A stretch of 64,000 bases of DNA from an uncultured Spirochaetales bacterium (GCA_964618265.1 CAZUAE010000014.1:4-64003); one strand, 5' to 3'; shown: positions 4,064 through 60,214, numbered from the stretch's first letter. The notes: a model not told the origin generated them from the sequence alone. Program-made: numbers and translations.

Positions 4064-7000
4064 TTACCTAATCAGGATAAATTCCACCCTTCTGTTTTTC
4101 CATCGATTTTCAAGATCACTAAAAGGGACGATGGGTTGAGCGCCGCCGAGACCTTCGGTGGATATCCGCTTAGGATCCATACCTAGATCTACCAATGCGC
4201 TCTTAACAGCTTCCGCGCGGGACTTAGAAAGGGGAATAAGTTCTTCCTCCTGTTCTATTTCCCCTTTCTTTGGGTCATCGTAGTGGACCATGACGGCATG
4301 GCCTTCGATTCTAATACGATAATTGGAATATTTCTCGAATATTTCAGCGAGTCTGCGCAGCGTTCTATAGTTCCGGTCAGCTTTTTCCTCATCAACATTT
4401 TTAAAGTTTGCAGTGTTTGGTGCAAAAGTGATGCTGGAGATGCGGATTTTCAGTTTATCTCCCTCCCGAATAACCAGTACATCAATTGGTATAGTGTCCC
4501 GGACGGTGGAGGTGTTTCCGTATCTATCCGTCATAGTGAGTGTGGTCCGGTAGTCTTCAGCTGCCTGGACAAGTTCCCCTTCATCCGAAAGACCATCCCA
4601 GATTATAGATTCAGCAGGCTCTCCTGTTCCGGAAAATGTCTTAAAAGGTTTACCGGTGGGATCGTAGATAATCAGTTCCCAGGTATCTATAGGGCTTTCA
4701 TCCCGGGCATTCAGCCGGATGGTGAGTTCATCATTAAGGCCGTCATCATCCGGCGAAAACAGCTTCGGGGTTAGGGTTATGTTCGATGCCGGCGGTGATA
4801 CATCCAGTATGAACTGAGATGATTTTGTTTCAGGTCTGTTGCCTTTATGGTACTCCACAACAAACTCAGCCCTGTAATTCCCCTCGGCAGCACGGGCAGC
4901 ATCGCTCTTGCCGTTCCACGTTACGGAATCCGGAGGCACTGACGTACCGGAAAATGTTTTTTCCGTACCGCCGTCAGCATGTTCCATCTTCAGGCGCCAG
5001 CGTTTTATGCCTTCCTTAAGACCGGTATAGAGCCGGAAGGTAATCGTATCATCAGTTCCGTCACCGTTTGGTGAAAAGCCCCGGTCGGAGACGGTTGTAA
5101 AAGCTGTAGTCCTGCGGGTATCGATGGTGATATTTTCCAGCTTACGTTCAACTTTATTACCTGCCTTGTCTTGTGAACTTACTGTATATATGTATGTTCC
5201 ATCCGGGATGCTGTTCCCATTCATATCCTTGCCGTCCCAGGTAAAATCCTTCGCGTTTCCCTGCCAAAAATAAGTTTTAATCACCTTTCCGGAGGTGTCG
5301 CTTATTTCGCCTTCCCAGAGATCCTCCGTGGAAGATGACTGAGATATCGTAATTTCATCCAGATTACCGTCCCCTTCTGGCGAAAAGAGAAGTGTCTCCG
5401 CGGATAATTCAATTTCCGGATACTGAGTGTCTAACACTACAGGATTGGTTTTTGTGGTGGGTTTATTTCCATTCATATACGTAACATGTAATTCACCCAA
5501 ATAGGTTCCATCCACCGCAGGATTTCCGGCTTCATTCTTGCCGTTCCACTCTATACGTTGAGGTATTGATCTGCCGGTAAAAGTCTTAATTTCTTCACCT
5601 GAGGTGTCCTTTATCTTTAACGTATAGGATTCAAAACCTTGTGATACGGATATGTCAGGGAGAAATTCCACAGCATCCTTTATTCCGTCAGCGTTAGGTG
5701 AAAAATAACTTATGTCTGTGGAAACCAGAATAGGGGTCTGGGTGGTATCGACAGAAAAAATTACTGCTGAAGATGAACCGGCATTACCAGCTTTATCTAT
5801 AGCCTTTAGTGTATAAGAGTATTGTCCGTCCGGTACATTCTTTCCCTGGAAATTTCTTCCGTCCCAGGAAAATTCTTCATCCACTGTACCCCGCCAGGTG
5901 TATACTCTTACGGGATCACTGTCTTCGTTTCGGACTGTTCCCTCCCATAGCTGTTCATTGGAGGCAGTCTGTGTAAATATCATAATATCTTTGCTTCCGT
6001 CTCCGTTAGGAGAAAAAACGGTATACTTTCCCGAAACTTTAGCTTCCGGCGGCGTAATATCTATGACGAACAAAGACGATTTTGCTCTTTCGATATTTCC
6101 CTTTTGGTATTCCACTTCAAGTTCGGCTTTATAGCTCCCTTCCCCTGCCTTACCTATTGTCTTTTCTCCATTCCATGTTATCGAAGCGGGGAGAGAACCT
6201 GTACCGTCATAAGTTTTCATAACTGCTCCGGCGGTATCTGTAATCTTCAGGTTCCATTCCTTAATGCCGGAATTCTGTTGCAGGGAGGGTTGGAAATCTA
6301 TAGTGTCCTTATTCCCGTCTCCATTAGGAGAAAAGAATCCTCTGGAAACAGTAATGGTTACCGGAGTTGGTTTTGTATCTACCTGTATATTTTGAAGAAG
6401 TTTAACAGTAAGGTTTCCTGCCTTATCTTCACTTTGAACACGGTAGGAATAGACTCCGTCCTTTACCGTATTACCTACAGCATCAGTACCGTCCCATGTA
6501 AGATTATCAACTTCTCCGGACCAAAACCAGGAATCCACCTCCTGGCCGTTGGCATCCAGTATTTGACCTTCCCAAAGATCCTCCGCACTGGAATCCTGAG
6601 TAATAGTTATCAGGTCCTTGTTCCCGTCTCCGTCCGGAGAAAAAAGTGAAGTGTCTGAATCTACAGCAATTTTTGGGAACACAGTATCCACTACAAAAGG
6701 GGAGGTAATAACGGAGGGATTGTTTCCGTTACGGTATTCCACGGTAAACCGTGCGGAATATTCTCCGTCACGGACAGTAGTGCCTGAATCGGTTTTTCCA
6801 TTCCATATCACCGCATTGGGAGGAGTTCCCCCGCCTGAAAACGTTTTTACCGGGTTTTCCAGTGAATCTAAAACAACTATTTCATAAGATTCTATTGTAT
6901 CGGAAACTCCGAGCTCCGGAGAAAAAGTTTGTGTATCCTTTTTTCCATCTCCGTTTGGAGAAAAGTGTGTGAGTTCAAATGCAAGCTGAACAGGAGTTTC

Positions 7001-9304
7001 TCTGGTATCTATCTCAAAGGCAACAATATTGGATTGAACACTGTTTCCCGCAAGGTCTGTGGAAGAAAGCTGATAAAAATACCTGCCGTCCTCTAATAAA
7101 TTTCCATCTTCATCTCTTCCGTCCCAAGAATACTTTGTTTCCGCGTTACCCTTCCAAGTTATGGAATACATTTCATCACCATCTTCATTGGTTACAGAAC
7201 CTGTCCAAACCTCTTCGCGGCTTGTTTCCTGAAAAATAACTAGGAAATCTTTCCGTCCGTCACCGTTTGGTGAAAAAACATCCCACTGAGCTTTAGTTTG
7301 AACTGATGGAGGGGTCAAATCAAGATTGAAGGAAGGCGAAACATCCGAAGGATTGTTTCCGTTGATATACAAAAGGTCCAGTTGAGCGGTGTAGATACCT
7401 TCCGGAAGCCGTGTCCCGTCGTTATCCTTTCCGTCAAATGTTATTGTTTCCGGGAGTTCCTCTGCACCGGTAAATGAGCGGACAGTATTATCAGAATTGT
7501 CTTTTACCATTACTTCCCATTTTTCGATATTCGTTGTCGAGGGAGCGTCAATAGCAAAAAATATCGTGTCCTTTACTCCGTTCCCGTCGGGGGAAAAATT
7601 TGCATCAGAAACAGATAGATCAATAGGAGTTTTTTCAGTATTGATAATGATATTATCTGTCCTATGTGTTATGGTATTCCCCGCCTTATCGGTGGATGAT
7701 ATAACATACCAGTATACACCATCCGGTGCTAAAATCCCTTCGCTGTTTTTTCCATCCCACTGGAAAAATTCCGGTTCTCCAGCCCAGGTAAATTCCGCAA
7801 CCTTTTCTTCCACCGCATTATATATTTCCGCTTCCCATTTATCTTCTTTTGATCCGAATTGATCTATTACAAGAGTATCTTTGTTTCCGTCGTCATTGGG
7901 AGAGAAAATCGGATAGGGAAGTTCAACGGTTACCATAGGGTCCACCGTATCTATGACAACTTTTCGGGAATCTGTTTTACTGATATTTCCATTGTCGTCC
8001 CAGGCTTCGACAAAGTAGGTATATGTTCCATCCGAGACCAGAGAGCCGGCATCGTCATTTCCGTCCCATCTAAGGGATTCCGGTACTGTGATTCCTTCTT
8101 TAACGTAGAGCAGCCGGTCGATAACATTCCGGAAACCTTCATTTTCGGGACGTTCATCTTTATTTTTTATTGTGCGGACAACTTTTCCGTCAGAATCCTG
8201 AAAGATTAATCGGTATCCGCGGACGTATCTTTCGTCTTCAATAGCCAAAGGAACAAGTAAATTATCTTTTACTCCGTCGAAATTAGGAGAGATGTAGGCT
8301 ATTCCGTCAGGTCCGATGGAAATATCAGGAGGATTTCTATCAATTACTCCTAAGGGAAGGTTCGCCCCAAGCCCCATAGCCCAGATACCGTTAATCAGCG
8401 GCGCTGCTCCGGCCGTGGTTGTAATTTCACTGCGGCGCCAAACGTCTGCTTCCCCATCATCATCCGACTTCGAGCCCGTTCCGAAACTAACTGCCAAACC
8501 GAAGGACAGCGGAAACCGCTCGGTGCCGGTTAATGTATCCTGTAAATCGAAATTATACGCGCCTTTAAGACTGATCATATCAAAAAGAATTGCTGAAAGG
8601 CCCGCGCTTAAATGAACGTCCTGAAATGTCGGGAAAGCCGCATAAGAACTAAAGCCTAAGGTGAAAGGATCGGTTTCGATAAGTTTAAAAGATGTATCCA
8701 GAACAGGTGTGAATATCGAAGGGATTTTCCCCCCAGGGGAATTATATCCCTTTCCCATTCCTCTCATGGCGAATCCCCAACGAAAGTCCTTGAGAAAGCC
8801 CAAATCTCCGGGAAGGTGGACAAAGCCCAAATTCAGACCCAATCCCCAATCGGCTCCAAAAACAAAATCGAGTCCCGCGCCTACATAGAAATCCGGATAT
8901 AGATCTTTACCAAAGCTCGTATTAATCATTCCAAAAGTACCGTAAGGAAGGAATGCAAAAGGTGAAGTTAAAAAACGGCCGCTGCCGCTGAAAACACCTG
9001 CCCGTGTAGGAACCGTTACACCGGCGTTTATAACATGCCCCATTCCTGTATCCTCACCAAAACCGAGCATGTTTATATAACTCAGATCCAGAGTCAAACG
9101 CTGTTTTCCGCCGGAAGCCGCCGGATTTAAAACGTCCGACTGCGGTGATACCATTCCGGAAGCCGTAACGCCCCCCGCCAAAAAAGACGGAGAGTAGAGG
9201 TATTCAGTATCAACGAATGCGTCAGTCTGCGAAAATACCGGAATTCCTGTTATAAAAAATACTGTAATCAATATATATAAAAGTCGGCTTTTCTTGATAT
9301 CCAT
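4064..9304 (-). CDS. Giant secreted OmpA-family protein: signal peptide, Gly/Phe-rich N-terminal domain, ~12 FlgD-Ig-like repeats, C-terminal OmpA peptidoglycan-binding domain
   Basis: 1746 aa. N-terminal signal peptide (MDIKKSRLLYILITVFFITGIPVFSQ). Repeated FSPNGDGxKD / FSPDGDGNKD motifs (~12 copies) typical of FlgD-Ig-like domains. C-terminus (RIRIEGHAVMV...RAEAVKSALVDLGMDP...NRRVEFILIR) matches the OmpA C-terminal domain. Confidence 0.75.
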   Translation of the reverse strand: MDIKKSRLLYILITVFFITGIPVFSQTDAFVDTEYLYSPSFLAGGVTASGMVSPQSDVLNPAASGGKQRLTLDLSYINMLGFGEDTGMGHVINAGVTVPTRAGVFSGSGRFLTSPFAFLPYGTFGMINTSFGKDLYPDFYVGAGLDFVFGADWGLGLNLGFVHLPGDLGFLKDFRWGFAMRGMGKGYNSPGGKIPSIFTPVLDTSFKLIETDPFTLGFSSYAAFPTFQDVHLSAGLSAILFDMISLKGAYNFDLQDTLTGTERFPLSFGLAVSFGTGSKSDDDGEADVWRRSEITTTAGAAPLINGIWAMGLGANLPLGVIDRNPPDISIGPDGIAYISPNFDGVKDNLLVPLAIEDERYVRGYRLIFQDSDGKVVRTIKNKDERPENEGFRNVIDRLLYVKEGITVPESLRWDGNDDAGSLVSDGTYTYFVEAWDDNGNISKTDSRKVVIDTVDPMVTVELPYPIFSPNDDGNKDTLVIDQFGSKEDKWEAEIYNAVEEKVAEFTWAGEPEFFQWDGKNSEGILAPDGVYWYVISSTDKAGNTITHRTDNIIINTEKTPIDLSVSDANFSPDGNGVKDTIFFAIDAPSTTNIEKWEVMVKDNSDNTVRSFTGAEELPETITFDGKDNDGTRLPEGIYTAQLDLLYINGNNPSDVSPSFNLDLTPPSVQTKAQWDVFSPNGDGRKDFLVIFQETSREEVWTGSVTNEDGDEMYSITWKGNAETKYSWDGRDEDGNLLEDGRYFYQLSSTDLAGNSVQSNIVAFEIDTRETPVQLAFELTHFSPNGDGKKDTQTFSPELGVSDTIESYEIVVLDSLENPVKTFSGGGTPPNAVIWNGKTDSGTTVRDGEYSARFTVEYRNGNNPSVITSPFVVDTVFPKIAVDSDTSLFSPDGDGNKDLITITQDSSAEDLWEGQILDANGQEVDSWFWSGEVDNLTWDGTDAVGNTVKDGVYSYRVQSEDKAGNLTVKLLQNIQVDTKPTPVTITVSRGFFSPNGDGNKDTIDFQPSLQQNSGIKEWNLKITDTAGAVMKTYDGTGSLPASITWNGEKTIGKAGEGSYKAELEVEYQKGNIERAKSSLFVIDITPPEAKVSGKYTVFSPNGDGSKDIMIFTQTASNEQLWEGTVRNEDSDPVRVYTWRGTVDEEFSWDGRNFQGKNVPDGQYSYTLKAIDKAGNAGSSSAVIFSVDTTQTPILVSTDISYFSPNADGIKDAVEFLPDISVSQGFESYTLKIKDTSGEEIKTFTGRSIPQRIEWNGKNEAGNPAVDGTYLGELHVTYMNGNKPTTKTNPVVLDTQYPEIELSAETLLFSPEGDGNLDEITISQSSSTEDLWEGEISDTSGKVIKTYFWQGNAKDFTWDGKDMNGNSIPDGTYIYTVSSQDKAGNKVERKLENITIDTRRTTAFTTVSDRGFSPNGDGTDDTITFRLYTGLKEGIKRWRLKMEHADGGTEKTFSGTSVPPDSVTWNGKSDAARAAEGNYRAEFVVEYHKGNRPETKSSQFILDVSPPASNITLTPKLFSPDDDGLNDELTIRLNARDESPIDTWELIIYDPTGKPFKTFSGTGEPAESIIWDGLSDEGELVQAAEDYRTTLTMTDRYGNTSTVRDTIPIDVLVIREGDKLKIRISSITFAPNTANFKNVDEEKADRNYRTLRRLAEIFEKYSNYRIRIEGHAVMVHYDDPKKGEIEQEEELIPLSKSRAEAVKSALVDLGMDPKRISTEGLGGAQPIVPFSDLENRWKNRRVEFILIR
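4560..8320 (-). repeat. Intragenic tandem array of ~100-aa (~300-nt) FlgD-Ig-like repeats in two alternating subtypes
   Basis: Protein repeats alternate between a WEG / WDG.D..GN..DG.Y.Y / DKAGN subtype and a W.L.I.D..G / I.WNGK / VEY..GN subtype. Approximate DNA span is back-calculated from amino-acid positions 330-1580. Confidence 0.55.
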
Positions 9305-34777: not shown

Positions 34778-35131
34778 TTGAATATGAAAAAAATCGCTCT
34801 ATTTGCTTTCAATGGTGATCCCATGTGTTTTATCCACGTGCTTCTGAACAGTATCGACATGCGGGAAAAAGGGTTTAATGTTGCTTTAGTTATTGAAGGA
34901 AGTGCTACCGCCCTGATTAAGGAGATGGATAAAGAAGGTCACAAATTATACGATCTATACCAACGGGTTAAAGAGAGCGGTATCATTGACTGTGTCTGCC
35001 GTGCCTGTTCACTTCAGATGAATTCCGTTGAATCAGCGGAACAGCAAAAGCTTCCGCTATGCGCGGAAATGCACGGGCACCCGTCTATGGCAAGCTATAT
35101 AGATGAAGGTTACGAAGTAATATCTTTTTAG
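34778..35131 (+). CDS. DsrE/DsrF-like (YchN-fold) small protein
   Basis: 117 aa. Pattern KIALFAFNGDP...GFNVALVIEGSA...IDCVCRACS resembles the DsrE/DsrF-like family. Weak assignment. Confidence 0.4.
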   Translation: MNMKKIALFAFNGDPMCFIHVLLNSIDMREKGFNVALVIEGSATALIKEMDKEGHKLYDLYQRVKESGIIDCVCRACSLQMNSVESAEQQKLPLCAEMHGHPSMASYIDEGYEVISF

Positions 35132-35183
35132 GTTGGGTATACCCAAAGCTACTGGGGAATCCTCATTTTATCTTAGGAAGAAG

Positions 35184-35212
35184 GCGATTCTAAATCGCAA
35201 ATTTAGAATCGC
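35184..35212. repeat. Perfect 12-bp-arm palindrome GCGATTCTAAAT-cgcaa-ATTTAGAATCGC (member of an ATTCTAAAT/ATTTAGAAT element family)
   Basis: Read directly from the sequence. Lies between convergent genes, 6 nt past the DUF72 stop. Shares its core with the elements at 58291 and 59651. Confidence 0.6.
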
Positions 35213-35217
35213 AGACC

Positions 35218-36033
35218 TTACTTAATAACGTATGCTTCTTTTTTTTCCAAAAGAAGCATATCCCTTAGTGTTTTACCATTCTTAACAGCTTTTCCTTTAT
35301 AATGATTATTAAAGGTAATTATAAGCAACTGTGTATCTGAAGCCATTGCCCAAATTTTTTCTACTATGTTCTGTAGTTCATCCCGGGAGTAAAGATAATC
35401 ATAACGGGAAGTATTAGTACCATTCCACCAGTTCTCCTTATTCCGTCCATGAAGCCTGAAATATCCTACCGAAGAAGTAACCTCAATCGCGGCAGAAGGA
35501 AGATTATGTAATTCCGGCATATCTGTAACCACATATCCGATCTTTTGATCCTTCATTTCAGAATAAACACTTTCATTTTGCCATTCCGCATTCCTAAATT
35601 CCAGAAAAAGAGGGAGTTCCTTAAACTTACTGGTCAATTCTCCCAAATACATTCTGTTCTTATCTTCATAATGGAAACTATAAGGAAACTGCAATAATAC
35701 TCCCGCGAGTTTTTGATGTTCCCGCATCGGTTCCATACCCCGGATAAAAAGATCCGCCTGTTTCTCCCAACTATGATCCACTTCATGAGTTAGGGCTTTA
35801 TGCCCCTTGATCGTAAAGAGAAAGCCATCCGGAGCCTTAGCAGTAATCCGTTCTATTGTTTTCGGTTCAGGCTGCTTATAATAGGAAAAGTTTAATTCTG
35901 TAAGGGAGAATAATGTGCTGTAGTAATCAAAATAATCGGAAGGTTTTGTTCCTTCCGGATAAACCGGGCCCACCCAATCCTTATAGGAGTAACCTGATGT
36001 TCCAATACGTATCTGTTTTTTTTTCATAAACAT
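35218..36033 (-). CDS. DUF72 (YecE-like) family protein
   Basis: N-terminal IRIGTSGYSYKDWVGPVYP is the DUF72 hallmark. Confidence 0.65.
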   Translation of the reverse strand: MFMKKKQIRIGTSGYSYKDWVGPVYPEGTKPSDYFDYYSTLFSLTELNFSYYKQPEPKTIERITAKAPDGFLFTIKGHKALTHEVDHSWEKQADLFIRGMEPMREHQKLAGVLLQFPYSFHYEDKNRMYLGELTSKFKELPLFLEFRNAEWQNESVYSEMKDQKIGYVVTDMPELHNLPSAAIEVTSSVGYFRLHGRNKENWWNGTNTSRYDYLYSRDELQNIVEKIWAMASDTQLLIITFNNHYKGKAVKNGKTLRDMLLLEKKEAYVIK

Positions 36034-41561: not shown

Positions 41562-43163
41562 CTATTTTAATAACACAAGCCGCTCTTGCATTGATAACCC
41601 GGCAAGAGATGGATCAAATTCTCTCTTTTTTGGTTTTAGATACTTAAAGGGGTGTATATCTAGAGGATTGGGATACCATCCGTCTATTCTGCTCGTATCA
41701 ATAAGATTTACCGCGGGAGTATGACTTATCGGAAGAACAACCCCTGTTTCAATTAGTATCTCTTCCGCCTTCGCGAGATTTTCATACCGGTCTTTCGTAT
41801 CACCGCTCATTGAATCTTCGATGAGGGTATCAAATTCCTGATCCCGGAAATTCGCGTCGTTAAGATTGCTGTCGGAAGTCCACATTTGAAGGAATGTCAA
41901 CGGATCAGCAAAATCCCCAATCCAGGTAAGAGTACCAAATGTATAGTCATCTTCATTCAAAGCCTCAAAATAGGAATCAAAACTGACTACTTTTAACTGA
42001 GTAGTTACCTCCAGATGCTCCTTTAAAGCCGATGCAATGAGTTCGGTGGTTTCCCTGTTTACAGGATCGGGGGGGATTTTAAATACGAGATCTTTCAATC
42101 CTCTCCCTTCGGGATAACCGGCTTCCGCGAGTAATTTTTTTCCGGCCTGAACGTCCTGTTTCAAACCTTCCACTTCAGGATACAGGGGTATCGGCGGAAC
42201 CAGTGTGTCCGCCGGGGTGAAAAACTTTTCGTGATCTCTGATCTTTTCCCACGGCATTATTAGTGCCACCCCGCGTCTTACTTTAGGATTGTTAAATGGT
42301 TTCTCTCTGCTCACCGAAAAGAAATAGGTGGTGGCGAACATAGGATTTATTTTAATTGCATCGGCAAACTGAACTTCCCGCAGATCCCAGCTTTGGGCAA
42401 CCCATTCTATCTGCCCTTTATTAAACAACTCTGTTACACGCTTGTCATCATCATTATAGTTAATCTTGACAATATCGTAATACACATTGTCCTTGTCCCA
42501 ATACCGAGGGTTTTTCTTTAGGGATAGTTCCGATGACGAGTACTCATCAATTATAAAGGGACCGTTTCCAATAACTTTATCCGGCTGGGTCAGCTGCTTC
42601 AGATAGAGATTTTCAGGATGCACGGCTGAAAAACTGTGATGACAGAGGATTTTCATAAAATGCGAAGCTGATTTTTCTAGAACAACCTCTAAAACAGTAT
42701 CCGAAAGGACTTTTATTCCTACAGATGATGCCCGGGAAGTTTTCCCGGTACGATAATTTTTAGCTCCCGCTATGATATCAAAAAGAAAAGAATAAGCAGC
42801 ATCATTCTGAGGGTGTAAGAGTTCCAGCCAGGAATCACGAAAATGCTTTGCCGTTACCTGATCTCCGTTTGAATATACCGTATCTCGCAAATAAAAGGTG
42901 TAAGTTTTTCCGTCCTCTGATATATCCCATTTTTCCGCAATTGCCGGAACGGGATTTAAGTTATAAGGATCGTATGATACAAGACCTTCAAAAAGGGCAG
43001 TATACAACTGAGCTTCCGAAGTGGTGTATGAATAAATCGGGTTATACTGTAAGTTTGCAGGGCTTAGATTTACTGTAAACTCCGCGTTCTCTTTCTGTGC
43101 TGTTATTGTAAACGGTATTATTATAAATAGAACAGATAGGGATAATCTTAATATATTTTTCAT
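41562..43163 (-). CDS. ABC transporter substrate-binding protein, family 5 (oligopeptide/OppA-like)
   Basis: Signal peptide. 533 aa. SBP_bac_5-like pattern (LVSYDPYNLNPVPAIAEKWDISEDGKTYTFYLR). Confidence 0.7.
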   Translation of the reverse strand: MKNILRLSLSVLFIIIPFTITAQKENAEFTVNLSPANLQYNPIYSYTTSEAQLYTALFEGLVSYDPYNLNPVPAIAEKWDISEDGKTYTFYLRDTVYSNGDQVTAKHFRDSWLELLHPQNDAAYSFLFDIIAGAKNYRTGKTSRASSVGIKVLSDTVLEVVLEKSASHFMKILCHHSFSAVHPENLYLKQLTQPDKVIGNGPFIIDEYSSSELSLKKNPRYWDKDNVYYDIVKINYNDDDKRVTELFNKGQIEWVAQSWDLREVQFADAIKINPMFATTYFFSVSREKPFNNPKVRRGVALIMPWEKIRDHEKFFTPADTLVPPIPLYPEVEGLKQDVQAGKKLLAEAGYPEGRGLKDLVFKIPPDPVNRETTELIASALKEHLEVTTQLKVVSFDSYFEALNEDDYTFGTLTWIGDFADPLTFLQMWTSDSNLNDANFRDQEFDTLIEDSMSGDTKDRYENLAKAEEILIETGVVLPISHTPAVNLIDTSRIDGWYPNPLDIHPFKYLKPKKREFDPSLAGLSMQERLVLLK

Positions 43164-43283
43164 TGGTACTCCAAGTTATTATTCCGGAATGATAACTTAA
43201 GGTTAGTCTCGGGAGAAATAAAAGTCAAATATGAGCGGAATAGATTAAACCAAGTCGTTCTTTAGTGATAAACGAATAAAGAA

Positions 43284-55847: not shown

Positions 55848-57752
55848 TTATGAACTGATTTTTCTAAGAATGTGAAATGAGCCTATTTTCTTTTTAGTAT
55901 CTATAACATCGTTACAGAGAGAGCCGCCGTCTAATCCGGCTTTTTGGATCAGTCTTTTGCGGGAAGCTTGACCGGGGAATTCTTTCTTAATCCCCCAATG
56001 TTTGTAAAGAACCGGTATATGCTCACGCTGGATAAAGGAGCCGATCATTTCTCCTATTCCTCCTGCGGATACACCATCCTCAAGAAGATATACCAATTTA
56101 TAACTGGACAGAATATCTAAAAGGTAATCCTCATCGATCGGTTCAATAAAACGGAGATTATATACATCTGCGGGAATTCCCTGTCTTCCCAATCGGTATG
56201 CGGCGTCCAGCAGTTCAGGAACCAACCCTCCCGTACCCGCAAGGAGAATATTGGAGTTATCTCTTATAGCAAATGCTCCTCTCCCTTCCACGAGGGGCTC
56301 CTGAAAAACTGATTGCCCGTCCAGACAATCATCTTTAGGATATCGAATCATAACGGGTCCCCGCATATTCAAGCTGTACTCTAACATCATACGAACTTCG
56401 TCCGTTGACGCCGGTGACAGCATGGTTATACCAGGGATTCCTCTAAAAAGAGCTATATCGAATATCCCCTGATGAGTAGCGCCGTCATTACCAACTAGTC
56501 CTGCCCTATCCAAGGCAAATATTACCGAATGGCCCGGTAAAGCGACATCATGTATTACTTGATCTACGGCTCGCTGCAGAAAGGTTGAGTAAATGGCTGC
56601 GACAGGTTTCAAACCTGCGGCAGCAAGCCCTGCGGCGAAGGTAACAGCATGCTGTTCGGTTATACCAACATCGTAAAATCTATCCGGAAAACGAGCTTTA
56701 AAGGGGGACAATCCTGTACCTTTGGCCATGGCGGCGGTAATGGCTACTATCTTATCATCCTTATCAGCAAAATCAATCATACTTTGAGAAAAAGCCTGGG
56801 TAAATGTCTTCTTTTCAGGATTGTCCACCTTCCCGTCTATAACAGAAAAGGAAGATATGCCATGAAAGGAAGTTGGATCATTCTCCGCGTAACTGTACCC
56901 ATGCCCTTTGATAGTACGGACATGAACGACAACGGGTCTTGCAACCTGCTTTATGTTTTTAAAAACGTTTATTAAGCTTTTTATATTGTGACCATCGATT
57001 GGACCAACATATTCGAAACCCAAATCCGAAAAGAGGTTTTCTTTAAATGCAACTGCCTTAACTGCCCGTTTGAAGCGTTCAATCATTCCTAGAAGTTCAG
57101 GACCGACTTTAGGAATGGTATTAACTAAAGAATCAAATCGGTCTCTAAATGTCTGATACATCTCGGTAGTTGTAAGACGTGACAGGTAAGAAGATATGGC
57201 TCCTACATTTCTGTTTATTGACATCTCGTTATCATTCAACACTACAACGAGATCCTTTTTTAAATGACCAGCATGATTCAGCCCTTCTAACGCAAGCCCC
57301 CCGCCGAGAGCACCATCACCAACGACGGCAACTACTTTTCCAGGTATGTTTTGAATTTTTTTCCCTTCTAAAATTCCCAATGCGGATGATATTGCCGTAG
57401 AAGCATGACCGGTTTCAATTAAATCATGGGTGCTTTCGTCCCGTTTGGGAAAACCTGACAATCCATTTTCAGTTCTAATAGAGCGGAAAAGATCTTTTCT
57501 TCCTGTGAGAATCTTATGGGTATAACACTGATGGCCCACATCCCAAATAAGTGCATCGGAAGGACTGTTAAAAACACGATGCAGAGCTATCGTTAACTCA
57601 ACAGCTCCAAGGTTTGATGCTAAATGGCCTCCGTTTTTGCTCACCACTTCAATAATCAGCTCTCTAACTTCATCTGCAAGCTGACAGAGAGATTCTTCTG
57701 GAATCTTTTTTAAATCATCAGATTTTAAGATGGAGGAAAGAACAGACGGCAT
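55848..57752 (-). CDS. dxs: 1-deoxy-D-xylulose-5-phosphate synthase
   Basis: TPP-binding GDG...N motif (VVGDGALGGGLALEGLNHAG...LNDNEMSI), GHQCYTHKILTGR, 634 aa. Confidence 0.9.
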   Translation of the reverse strand: MPSVLSSILKSDDLKKIPEESLCQLADEVRELIIEVVSKNGGHLASNLGAVELTIALHRVFNSPSDALIWDVGHQCYTHKILTGRKDLFRSIRTENGLSGFPKRDESTHDLIETGHASTAISSALGILEGKKIQNIPGKVVAVVGDGALGGGLALEGLNHAGHLKKDLVVVLNDNEMSINRNVGAISSYLSRLTTTEMYQTFRDRFDSLVNTIPKVGPELLGMIERFKRAVKAVAFKENLFSDLGFEYVGPIDGHNIKSLINVFKNIKQVARPVVVHVRTIKGHGYSYAENDPTSFHGISSFSVIDGKVDNPEKKTFTQAFSQSMIDFADKDDKIVAITAAMAKGTGLSPFKARFPDRFYDVGITEQHAVTFAAGLAAAGLKPVAAIYSTFLQRAVDQVIHDVALPGHSVIFALDRAGLVGNDGATHQGIFDIALFRGIPGITMLSPASTDEVRMMLEYSLNMRGPVMIRYPKDDCLDGQSVFQEPLVEGRGAFAIRDNSNILLAGTGGLVPELLDAAYRLGRQGIPADVYNLRFIEPIDEDYLLDILSSYKLVYLLEDGVSAGGIGEMIGSFIQREHIPVLYKHWGIKKEFPGQASRKRLIQKAGLDGGSLCNDVIDTKKKIGSFHILRKISS

Positions 57753-57814
57753 TTCTACATGAACCTTTTTACTTTTCCATAATAATATGGATTTAATGAA
57801 TTACTTAGGTAATT

Positions 57815-57841
57815 GAAAAATCCTGATTGGCTACAATCAGC
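57815..57841 (-). terminator. Candidate intrinsic terminator (minus strand) ~65 nt upstream of the dxs start
   Basis: On the minus strand: CTGATTG-tagc-CAATCAG hairpin (7 bp) followed by AUUUUUCAAUU. Read directly from the sequence. The stem is short and AT-rich, so the call is moderate. Confidence 0.35.
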
Positions 57842-58290
57842 CAGGGGTTCAGTATAGCTAATCATTTACAAAGTAAATAATTAGTTTTCCCGACCCGATA
57901 ACGGGGCTCTTGCAAAACATAAATTTGCAGGCACCGTACTTTAATAAATTTAGCACGTTTTTAGAAAAAAGCTATTTACTTTTCTTTTTATGCCGGTTTT
58001 TCCGTAACTTTTTTTTCCGCTTATGTGTGGAAATTTTTTTCCGTTTCCGTTTTCTTCCGCAAGGCACGTTATTTTACTCCTTATGCTAACATTTCCAATG
58101 ATATACCGTTAAACGTTATCTTACTTAAAGACAGCATTTATCTTTTTTATCCAATGCAATTAACTGTTCGGATACTAATAGGCAGGACCGACAGGTGAAG
58201 AAGGTCCGGAACCTTTCCGGGGTATCCCGGACAAGTATCCAATATAACTAATATCTTATGCTATAGTCAAGTAGTATACAGTAATTACCC

Positions 58291-58328
58291 GCAATTCTAA
58301 ATTTGTAATTTAGAATTGCCTTTTTACT
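58291..58328. repeat. Perfect 13-bp-arm palindrome GCAATTCTAAATT-tgt-AATTTAGAATTGC followed by CTTTTTACT (terminator-like on + strand, or operator)
   Basis: Read directly from the sequence. Same ATTCTAAAT/ATTTAGAAT core as the element at 35184. 84% identical over 38 nt to the element at 59651. Confidence 0.6.
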
Positions 58329-58434
58329 CATGTCATGCTTGGAATTCTCATTTTATTCGATTATTTTACGGCATTTTTTAGAAATCATTCCTCTTTCTGT
58401 TGCCTAAAGGTATAAAATGAGAATTCATCAGTAA

Positions 58435-59385
58435 TTACAAATTCCTTGATAAAAATGATTTAACACAATTATCAATACCGATATGGTTTTCCGGATGAAA
58501 CCACTGAACATCCGGCAAACGGCGGAAAAATGTAAGCTGCCGTTTCGCATACCGCCGGGTATTACGCTTTATATGCTCCTCAACGTCCCGACGGAGCATA
58601 CAACCTGTACCGGCATAAAGGTGAAACTCACGGTAGCCTATTCCTCTCATACCCGGATCTTTCCATGTTACTCCTCCTGCGAGAAGATTTTTCACTTCCT
58701 GGACTAAACCGCATTTGAACATCTCGTCAATACGGTCTTCTATCCTTCTGTACAAATCAGGCCTGGGTCGATTCAGACCGATGAGGAGAAAGGTATATTT
58801 CGATCGTTTTTTATCCGGCACCTTAAAACTGGAAAGAGGCTTTCCTGTTACTTCATAGACTTCCAAAGCTCTGGTAAGTCTGTAGACATCCCGTGATGAA
58901 ATTCGCTGAGCCGTATCAGGATCGATTTGAGAGAGTTCTTCAAAAAGCTTTTGTGAGCCTTCCCGGTTCAATCGAAGCTTAATACTTTCCCGGACTCGGC
59001 GGTTTGAGGGTGGAGCGCTGGAGATCCCGAATAGAAAATTCTTTATATAGAATGCCGTACCGCCTGATACAACGGGTATTTTATCCTTTTTTATTATTTC
59101 CGGTATTAGTATATCGGCTCTCTTTATAAATTCCCCCACATCATATTTCTCGTTTGGGGTTTTTATATCCACAAGATGATGCGGTATTTCAGACAAAACT
59201 GCGGATCGGGGCTTTGCGGTGCCGATATTCATCCCTCGGTAAACTTGAAGAGAATCGGCATTTATTACTTCTCCGCATCTTTTGAAGATTCGATTAATGA
59301 TTTCTGTTTTTCCTACTGCCGTCGGACCAAATAACAAAACGACCGGCAGAGGGAAAGCGGATTTATTCTTCCAGTTGGTATTCAA
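58435..59385 (-). CDS. miaA: tRNA dimethylallyltransferase
   Basis: P-loop GPTAVGKTE, characteristic ADSLQVYRGMNIGTAKP, 316 aa. Confidence 0.85.
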   Translation of the reverse strand: MNTNWKNKSAFPLPVVLLFGPTAVGKTEIINRIFKRCGEVINADSLQVYRGMNIGTAKPRSAVLSEIPHHLVDIKTPNEKYDVGEFIKRADILIPEIIKKDKIPVVSGGTAFYIKNFLFGISSAPPSNRRVRESIKLRLNREGSQKLFEELSQIDPDTAQRISSRDVYRLTRALEVYEVTGKPLSSFKVPDKKRSKYTFLLIGLNRPRPDLYRRIEDRIDEMFKCGLVQEVKNLLAGGVTWKDPGMRGIGYREFHLYAGTGCMLRRDVEEHIKRNTRRYAKRQLTFFRRLPDVQWFHPENHIGIDNCVKSFLSRNL

Positions 59386-59554
59386 CCTTCTTAGTTAAAA
59401 TCTGTTTGATAGCAGTAGATACTACTTTCCCTTCGTTTTCTTCAAGTTCTTCATCACCGGTTATAGATATTTGGTACGCCCGCCTTATGGCTGCACTCGT
59501 TACTTCGTATATGTTACCTTCATTGCCAATTAGTAGATCCATAGGAATAATCAT
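59363..59554 (-). CDS. rpoZ: Probable DNA-directed RNA polymerase omega subunit
   Basis: 63 aa. NIYEVTSAAIRRAYQI resembles the omega SKY.LV..AARRAR core. GGAG sits 9 nt upstream. Overlaps the miaA start by 23 nt. Confidence 0.45.
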   Translation of the reverse strand: MIIPMDLLIGNEGNIYEVTSAAIRRAYQISITGDEELEENEGKVVSTAIKQILTKKVEYQLEE

Positions 59555-59650
59555 CGGTATGTGCTCCAGTCTTTTTATTTAAGGATAGTATACATAATTT
59601 TTATACTAAATGTAAACAATCCCGGCACAGCAATTTCCGGCACCAGCAAG

Positions 59651-59689
59651 GGCAATTTTAAATTTGCATTATGCAATTGCCTTTTTACT
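59651..59689. repeat. Degenerate copy of the 58291 palindromic element: GGCAATT-ttaaatttgcattatgc-AATTGCC plus CTTTTTACT
   Basis: Position-wise ~84% identical to 58290..58328 including the identical tail AATTGCCTTTTTACT. Located in the cmk-rpoZ intergenic spacer. Confidence 0.55.
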
Positions 59690-59707
59690 AACGCAAAGCT
59701 TTTATAG

Positions 59708-60214
59708 TTATCCAAGTTTACTGACTATCAACTGAACTTCTTCATCTTGAGAAAATCGCTCAGTGTCGATAATGATGTCGGCAAAGCTATAATCATTATT
59801 ATCTATACCGTAAAGACGAAGATATCTATTTCTATCCCTTCTATCCCTTTCCAGAGTGCGTTTTAAAACATCTTCAAATCTTCCCCTTTCCCGTTGTTGT
59901 ATCCTCGAAGCTCTTACTTCCGGAGAAGCTGTAAGAAAAACCTTTACATCAGCATCTTCTAAAAGCCAGATAGCCAGACGGGATCCTAGTACAACATTAT
60001 CTCCCCGGGCAAGCTCAATCTGCCTTTTGTCCAGCAGCCGGTCCCATTTTTGATCTGTTTCCGCTAATTCACATAATTGCTGAAAAGGAATATTCAGTTC
60101 TTCGGCAAGGGTATGAAATGTATAGTTTACCATTCTATACCCTAGTTTATCAGCTGTCATCTTACTTATGGTGGTATTACCGCATCCGCTTTTTCCGGAA
60201 ATTGCAATCTTCAT
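59708..60214 (-). CDS. cmk: Cytidylate kinase (archaeal/type-2 Cmk family)
   Basis: P-loop ISGKSGCGNTT. 168 aa. Overall similarity to short CMP kinases. Confidence 0.65.
   Translation of the reverse strand: MKIAISGKSGCGNTTISKMTADKLGYRMVNYTFHTLAEELNIPFQQLCELAETDQKWDRLLDKRQIELARGDNVVLGSRLAIWLLEDADVKVFLTASPEVRASRIQQRERGRFEDVLKRTLERDRRDRNRYLRLYGIDNNDYSFADIIIDTERFSQDEEVQLIVSKLG

Follow-up and report, generated by a model that had tools for sequence, protein, structure and literature searches.

The DNA analyzed here is a stretch of 64,000 nt, referred to below as the window, from an uncultured Spirochaetales bacterium of microbial mats. Its MiaA protein is identical on PRJEB25599 contigs, near-identical sequence is found on the NCBI MAG GCA_963991355.1 and on JGI contigs, and the next-nearest MiaA among the 5.8 billion proteins searched is only 59% identical. 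The genes around copies 2 and 3 of the repeat described below, murC, yicC, cmk (59708-60214), rpoZ (59363-59554), miaA (58435-59385), bS22 (57972-58067) and dxs (55848-57752), all lie on the minus strand. The bS22 gene is unannotated. It sits in the 680-nt gap between miaA and dxs, was missed by gene callers on every contig, and encodes a protein of 31 aa (MPCGRKRKRKKISTHKRKKKLRKNRHKKKSK) from a GTG start with the ribosome-binding site AAGGAG; the reading frame matches PDB chain 8fmw_V, "30S ribosomal protein bS22" (E = 1.8e-9). The gap, for which the first-pass annotation had proposed an unannotated plus-strand transcript, hides this minus-strand gene instead.

Sigma-70-type promoters are predicted on the minus strand for bS22 and for rpoZ-miaA. 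That of bS22 (TTGACT-18-TATATT, 58241-58270) has an ortholog in the related loci L098 and L099, where the bS22 gene is also kept. The predicted rpoZ-miaA promoter (TTTACA-18-TATACT, 59587-59616) lies 91 nt downstream of the cmk stop codon. The bS22 5' leader (58136-58235, minus strand) is about 100 nt longer than in L098/L099 and contains a G+C-rich stretch, GGATACTTGTCCGGGATACCCCGGAAAGGTTCCGGACC...; its fold scores z = -1.5, it has no Rfam match, and a short GGACC...GGTCC hairpin is common to the window and the relative. This stretch may represent either a leader element or one more insertion specific to the lineage.

Some 23 kb away, a DsrE-like gene (34784-35131, plus strand) and a DUF72 gene (35218-36033, minus strand) converge on an 86-nt gap. 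This gap contains the first of the three palindromic elements considered here, 5 nt past the DUF72 stop codon and correctly oriented as a DUF72 terminator. Two more perfect palindromes flank it: TTGGGTATACCCAA (35133-35146), 2 nt past the DsrE-like stop codon, and TATGCTTCTTTT-N6-AAAAGAAGCATA (35231-35260), within the 3' end of the DUF72 coding sequence. Elsewhere in the window, a near-perfect palindrome, AAGTTATTATTCCGGAATGATAACTT (43173-43198), just precedes the start of the minus-strand gene at 41562-43163, and looks more operator-like than the three elements. The window also encodes a surface-type protein of 1746 aa (4064-9304, minus strand) with about ten tandem repeats of about 105 aa, corresponding to a DNA period of about 312-321 nt, and a C-terminal OmpA domain. 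At the left edge (1-60), several independent assemblies end within 75 nt (L131, L132), and there is probably an unresolved repeat or variable region just left of the window.

Three copies of a palindromic unit

The first-pass annotation described three related palindromes, and all three sequences are found where it placed them. They represent one unit of approximately 38 nt, composed of a 29-nt AT-rich palindrome with G-C clamps and a one-sided tail, CCTT(T/C)TT(A/C)CT; the consensus of the roughly 40-nt conserved unit reads T(T/G)AG(T/G)AA(A/G)AAGG followed by the 29-nt palindrome. The core of copy 2 (58291-58328) is oriented on the plus strand, the strand where the T-tail follows the hairpin. 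Its palindrome, GCAATTCTAAATT-tgt-AATTTAGAATTGC (58291-58319), forms a perfect 13-bp stem with a 3-nt loop and is followed by the tail CTTTTTACT. Copy 1 (35175-35212) has the opposite orientation, with GCGATTCTAAATTTGCGATTTAGAATCGC and the tail CTTCTTCCT read on the minus strand; its palindrome, GCGATTCTAAAT-cgcaa-ATTTAGAATCGC (35184-35212), has a perfect 12-bp stem and a 5-nt loop. Read in this way, copy 1 (GCGATTCTAAATTTGCGATTTAGAATCGCCTTCTTCCT) agrees with copy 2 plus tail in 32 of 38 positions (84%). Copy 1 is thus an inverted copy of the copy-2 unit, a point absent from the first-pass annotation. Copy 3 (59652-59689, plus strand; palindrome at 59652-59680) is degenerate. The left arm, loop and tail are kept, the right arm carries five substitutions, and 10 of the 13 stem pairs are retained.

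The identical tail of copies 2 and 3 and their likeness of about 84% over 38 nt, both reported previously, were confirmed: the 15-mer AATTGCCTTTTTACT is present at 58314 and at 59675 and nowhere else in the window, and the two copies share 32 of 38 positions. Over a longer stretch, with likeness reaching 59701, they agree at 39 of 50 positions (78%). When all repeat pairs in the window were ranked, copies 1 and 2 formed the top inverted pair, and copies 2 and 3 the top two-copy direct pair. In 200 first-order Markov simulations of the window the copy-2 38-mer found a mean best match of 23.5/38 and a maximum of 27/38. As 32/38 was reached twice, the similarity of the copies is far beyond chance. 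The repeat family is real, and is no by-product of AT-richness. A degenerate pattern, fitted to the three copies by construction, matches those three sites alone in the window at up to three mismatches.

The bare 9-mer core is not enriched in the window when one mismatch is allowed (38 observed versus 42.7 expected), and only one exact copy lies outside the palindromes. The paired uptake sequences of Neisseria (DUS) and Haemophilus (USS) likewise place a fixed 9-12-mer as an inverted pair after genes, but the single 9-mer is not over-represented in the window, and we rejected a DNA-uptake-sequence reading on this ground. A protein-coding reading was rejected as well: short open reading frames cross copies 2 and 3, but the frames over the shared unit differ between the copies.

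As RNA, copy 2 folds with -13.2 kcal/mol (z = -7.6). The 12-13-bp stems of copies 1 and 2 score z = -4 to -7.6, and the fold of copy 3 is weakly better than its shuffles (z = -1.7). Within the palindrome, the four differences between copies 1 and 2 comprise a compensatory change of an A-U to a G-C pair (two changes, stem position 3), a change of U-A to a U-G wobble, and a loop change. These differences would fit selection or repair that keeps the hairpin; with three sequences only, covariation carries no statistical weight, as it amounts to one compensatory pair, a level equalled or exceeded in 167 of 500 shuffles. All three copies are extragenic and lie 5-107 nt from a stop codon. They are dispersed in both orientations, copies 2 and 3 lying 1.36 kb apart in the same orientation and copy 1 inverted and 23 kb from copy 2.

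The copy-2 block and its orthologous sites

Copy 2 is part of a 140-nt block (58289-58428) that lies between the miaA stop codon and the bS22 promoter, immediately upstream of the latter, and that contains a second hairpin in addition to the copy-2 core. An exact direct repeat of 10 nt, CAGTAATTAC, brackets the block and leaves 2 nt spare at either end; its left copy occupies 58279-58288, and its right copy (58429-58438, both plus strand) overlaps the miaA stop codon. This candidate target-site duplication contains an 8-nt palindrome, GTAATTAC. The probability of an exact repeat of at least 10 nt between two 20-nt flanks of such composition is 6.5e-4. Deletion of the block and one repeat in silico leaves the miaA stop codon 14 nt from the bS22 -35 element, an arrangement as in the relative. 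Folded as a whole, the block forms two hairpins (-26.3 kcal/mol, z = -5.7), which the flanking GTAATTAC repeats close. The second of these hairpins, hairpin A (58342-58426), has perfect 15-nt arms, GAATTCTCATTTTAT and ATAAAATGAGAATTC, which enclose a loop of 55 nt. Aligned with the copy-1 unit, this loop gives a weak match (score 44; shuffles, mean 20 and maximum 35), and it may represent a decayed fourth copy. The ends of the block, GCAATTCTAAATTTG and TGAATTCTCATTTTA, match at 10 of 15 positions as terminal inverted repeats, and each also has a perfect inverted partner inside the block.

A second module accompanies copy 1. The sequence TACTGGGGAATCCTCATTTTAT (35150-35171, plus strand) matches TACTGATGAATTCTCATTTTAT at 58433-58412 in 19 of 22 positions (86%), and a hairpin-A arm with one mismatch (35157-35171) lies beside copy 1 at the same spacing from the TACTG motif. 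Since this match occurs at equal spacing, copies 1 and 2 share two modules, the unit and GAATYCTCATTTTAT. At copy 1 and at copy 3 the two flanks have no more than 4 nt in common; the flanking duplication is found at copy 2 only. Between copy 3 and the rpoZ -35 element (59617-59651, minus strand) there is a near-tandem duplication, TTGCTGGTGCCGGAAA / TTGCTGTGCCGGGATT, and part of the extra DNA there is therefore not repeat unit.

The sites of copies 2 and 3 were compared with those of outgroups whose MiaA is 53-59% identical (L098/L099, 59%; L124; L125). In L098/L099 the gene order cmk-rpoZ-miaA-bS22-dxs is kept, and the bS22 promoter and gene align base for base. Neither palindrome is present in L098/L099 at the orthologous copy-2 and copy-3 sites. 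There the miaA stop codon lies inside the -35 element, TTGACT, of the orthologous bS22 promoter, compared with a distance of 164 nt in the window, and the cmk stop codon lies 4 nt from the rpoZ -35 element, compared with 91 nt. In L124 and L125 the rpoZ promoter is at or inside the end of cmk. In the relatives, then, the rpoZ and bS22 promoters directly adjoin the preceding stop codons, so that the DNA holding copies 2 and 3 is extra and specific to this lineage. With outgroups this distant, deletion in the relatives may have occurred instead of insertion here, but it would be needed at two sites. Within the species, every site-spanning contig carries the copies (4-10 independent contigs per site), and no empty-site allele was seen among them.

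Within 110 nt of the copies, independent metagenome contigs stop or diverge. Different assemblers and samples yielded contigs with ends exactly at 58396/58397 (L003, L005) and at 59624/59625 (L002, L005), beside copies 2 and 3, which suggests alternative sequence paths or structural variants in the population. In contig L004, a metagenome contig of the same species from a single sample, an insertion sequence of the ISKra4 family ends exactly at window position 58270/58271, between the copy-2 block and the bS22 -35 element. Over its positions 1249-1593 this contig leaves the window path into the IS end GGGTGGGAATTCGAAATCC..., and the C-terminus of the transposase matches NF033572 (E = 1.6e-23). 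The same end is conserved in the Spirochaetota MAG GCA_040752435.1 (L137), where the transposase is split into three open reading frames. We considered whether the repeat derives from this IS. The end GGGTGGGAATTCGAAAT is 10/12 alike by eye, but a local alignment fell within the shuffle range, and this candidate was rejected. The IS ends compared with the repeat were those of the ISKra4 family alone (L004, L137).

Further copies and known repeat families

The genome sequence sampled, the window plus 9 kb past its right end, amounts to approximately 73 kb. The window, the 9 kb beyond it and L098/L099 were searched with an nhmmer profile of the three copies, and no additional one was detected, leaving three copies, or four with the hairpin-A loop, in about 73 kb. 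Searching 185,579 genomes for ATTCTAAAT-N3-5-ATTTAGAAT returned at least 91 single matches in unrelated AT-rich taxa; as none among the matches listed has the GCR/YGC clamps or the tail, we regard them as background. The source genome is not among the matches listed. The pattern AAGGCRATT-N9-11-AATTTARAATYGC, which fits all three copies, matched only unrelated conserved coding sequence and scattered metagenome and viral contigs in a metagenome collection. The source contig is not in that collection, and the scan did not return JGI contig L127, which carries the elements. A BLAST search of plasmids and phages with a 160-nt block query gave no match or chance-level matches only. Rfam returned nothing credible, either at gathering thresholds over the whole window or at E <= 10 over 57700-59750, and a tRNA search of the window found none. 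Among the genes with family matches in the 73 kb there is no transposase or RAYT with matching ends.

REPs have been defined as extragenic, palindromic, short (~14-40 nt) sequences with a common consensus and many copies per genome (PMC12306157), and in the REP super-families one end of the hairpin bears an unpaired tag, GTAG or CGTC (PMC3733652). The spirochaete unit has four of the five defining properties: it is extragenic, forms a palindromic stem-loop, is short (29-nt palindrome, 38-41-nt unit) and has a shared consensus. Like the REPs of Proteobacteria it has a conserved unpaired flank on one side and lies downstream of coding regions, between both unidirectional and convergent genes, and like REP dimers it stands next to a second related arm in opposite orientation. 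The stem, however, is AT-rich with G-C clamps only, whereas classic REPs are G+C-rich. The flanks, T(T/G)AG(T/G)AA(A/G)AAGG versus GG/AG/CC, contain no conserved GTAG/CTAC or CGTC/GACG. Three copies were seen in about 73 kb, with no gene for RAYT, the tyrosine transposase associated with GTAG REPs, among the family-matched genes, and copy 2 has a 10-nt flanking duplication, of a kind that REPs do not make.

The resemblance to MITEs, such as the Correia elements of Neisseria, ERIC/IRU and pneumococcal RUP, lies in the 140-nt non-coding block with long hairpin structure and direct-repeat flanks, in its insertion between a stop codon and the next promoter, in the coexistence of shorter and decayed versions, and in the possible presence of terminator- or promoter-like signals. 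An empty-site feature is also seen, as distant relatives lack the copy-2 and copy-3 DNA and keep the flanking gene and promoter. Unlike MITEs, the block has terminal inverted repeats that are only 10/15 alike, the most conserved part of the repeat is the internal perfect palindrome and its one-sided tail rather than the termini, and no parent IS with the same ends was found (the ISKra4-family end was compared). Correia elements duplicate the dinucleotide TA, and the duplication at copy 2 is 10 bp long. Overall, the REP/MITE-like family that the first-pass annotation had suggested fits the dispersed copies in both orientations, the extra DNA at copies 2 and 3, the 10-nt direct repeat and the compensatory stem change.

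Origin and role of the repeats

Copy 2 and its T-run had been read as a plus-strand intrinsic terminator flanked by minus-strand genes, and the sequence does read this way. The broader proposal that the elements serve as terminators stands for copy 1, with its T-tail on the sense strand, and fails for copies 2 and 3, where the T-tail is on the antisense strand. Their T-run is on the plus strand and every neighboring gene is on the minus strand; with a T-tail antisense to all of these genes, neither copy is an ordinary terminator for them. Read on the minus strand, the hairpin leads into GGGUAAUUAC, with no U-tract. The units share with intrinsic terminators a stem-loop and a T-rich run within 2 nt, and copy 1 is correctly placed and oriented. 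They differ in the AT-rich stem, in the antisense T-run at copies 2 and 3, and in a primary sequence common to the sites, which independent terminators do not share; hairpins are missing from the majority of the window's other gene ends. A hairpin terminator is the exception rather than the norm here. Convergent genes mostly overlap or directly adjoin each other. Of four segments scanned for terminator-like matches, two had about as many as their shuffles and two had more (32 versus 17.2, and 9 versus 3.4 in the 4 kb holding copies 2 and 3). Copies 1 and 2, with terminator-like stems of 13 pairs, are the longest in the window and are outliers; the remaining matches have stems of 5-11 pairs and are mostly inside open reading frames by their coordinates.

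Three other explanations of the family were weighed. The hairpins could be intrinsic terminators of unannotated plus-strand RNAs ending near 58325 and 59686, with copy 1 terminating DUF72 and the likeness arising through terminator duplication. Copy 2 is a textbook hairpin followed by CUUUUUACU (-13.2 kcal/mol), the T-tail is the best-conserved flank, with the same 15-mer in copies 2 and 3, the U-G wobble of copy 1 pairs solely in the transcript that bears the U-tail, and a weak plus-strand promoter-like sequence (TTGCCA-17-AATAAT, 59523-59551) is directed at copy 3. No plus-strand promoter-like site was seen upstream of copy 2 (57800-58290), however. The plus-strand open reading frames there are antisense artefacts of the Lys-rich bS22 gene, and there is no Rfam match, so that the plus-strand transcript proposed in the first-pass annotation finds no support from open reading frames, promoter scans or Rfam. 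The sites are also missing in relatives with the same genes and promoters, the flanking 10-nt repeat and the shared second module are left unexplained, and the fold of copy 3 is hardly above shuffles (z = -1.7). We consider this explanation unlikely. Less likely still is that the palindromes are operators of one dimeric DNA-binding protein co-regulating the bS22 and rpoZ-miaA promoters. A perfect palindrome with 12-13-bp half-sites, the predicted sigma-70-type promoters that follow copies 2 and 3 on the gene strand, and the membership of both downstream genes in the transcription and translation machinery would all suit the repeated operator proposed earlier. Against it, copy 1 has no promoter and is bounded by the stop codons of two convergent genes. 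The palindrome centers of copies 2 and 3 precede the predicted starts by approximately 71 and 86 nt, a difference of 1.5 helical turns that puts them on opposite helix faces. L098, L124 and L125 have neither the site nor room for it at their orthologous promoters, one half-site of copy 3 has lost five positions, the paired change at stem position 3 suggests that base-pairing rather than a protein contact is under selection, and no regulator gene is adjacent.

A local origin has slightly more to recommend it than unannotated transcripts, though we still judge it improbable. Non-transpositional copying of a local terminator-like sequence, by gene conversion, template switching or segmental duplication, would confine the family to a 25-kb neighborhood, and all copies do lie within 25 kb, with none in the other ~48 kb sampled. 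Copies 2 and 3 are just 1.36 kb apart in the same orientation. The right arm of copy 3 seems rewritten as a new palindrome, TTGCAT-T-ATGCAA, as by template switching, and the 11-mer AATTTGTAATT at the center of copy 2 recurs inverted at the miaA stop codon. Yet copy 1 is inverted and 23 kb distant, the 10-nt direct repeat that bounds the copy-2 block is typical of insertion, and the DNA between the direct repeats is not duplicated from neighboring DNA. Since no further copy, matching-end transposase or within-species empty allele was found, a local origin keeps a real share of the probability.

We propose, as the probable explanation, that a short dispersed repeat of REP/MITE-like kind, non-coding and able to form a hairpin, has been inserted intergenically at all three sites, just after stop codons, in this lineage. 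The proposal builds on direct observations, namely the shared sequence of the copies, their capacity to fold into hairpins, the lack of this DNA at the two orthologous sites in relatives and the flanking repeat at copy 2. The copies would have arrived by transposition, catalyzed by an enzyme acting in trans. Copy 2 would represent a composite of two hairpins, 140 nt long and flanked by a 10-bp duplication of the sort that cut-and-paste insertion produces. The hairpin and T-tail are predicted to stop RNA polymerase in one direction only, and in the co-directional murC-yicC-cmk-rpoZ-miaA-bS22-dxs string purifying selection may tolerate only insertions with an antisense-facing T-tail: as a sense-facing terminator would be polar, only the antisense orientation would survive in the gene string. 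Between convergent genes, as at copy 1, either orientation would be harmless. Any present role, such as the blocking of antisense or convergent read-through, would be secondary.

A bolder version, which we regard as quite doubtful, is that the repeats belong to a still-active and previously undescribed miniature transposon family of mat spirochaetes. Such a family would insert at palindromic GTAATTAC-like targets after stop codons with a 10-bp duplication, and its one-directional terminator would be kept only in the orientation that silences antisense transcription into rpoZ-miaA and cmk. Some members of the population also have an ISKra4-family element at this spot. If the bolder version were true, the intergenic region would be a natural insertion hotspot upstream of rpoZ and bS22, core genes of transcription and translation.

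Small palindromic repeats are well known from Proteobacteria, Neisseria and cyanobacteria. To our knowledge, based on a narrow literature search, few are known from free-living spirochaetes. The importance of the finding is modest: an untagged AT-rich family adds a data point on the spread and the tolerated sites of such elements. Automatic annotation would mis-call these hairpins as terminators or sRNA ends, and their orientation pattern is a small natural experiment on the polar effects of repeat insertion.
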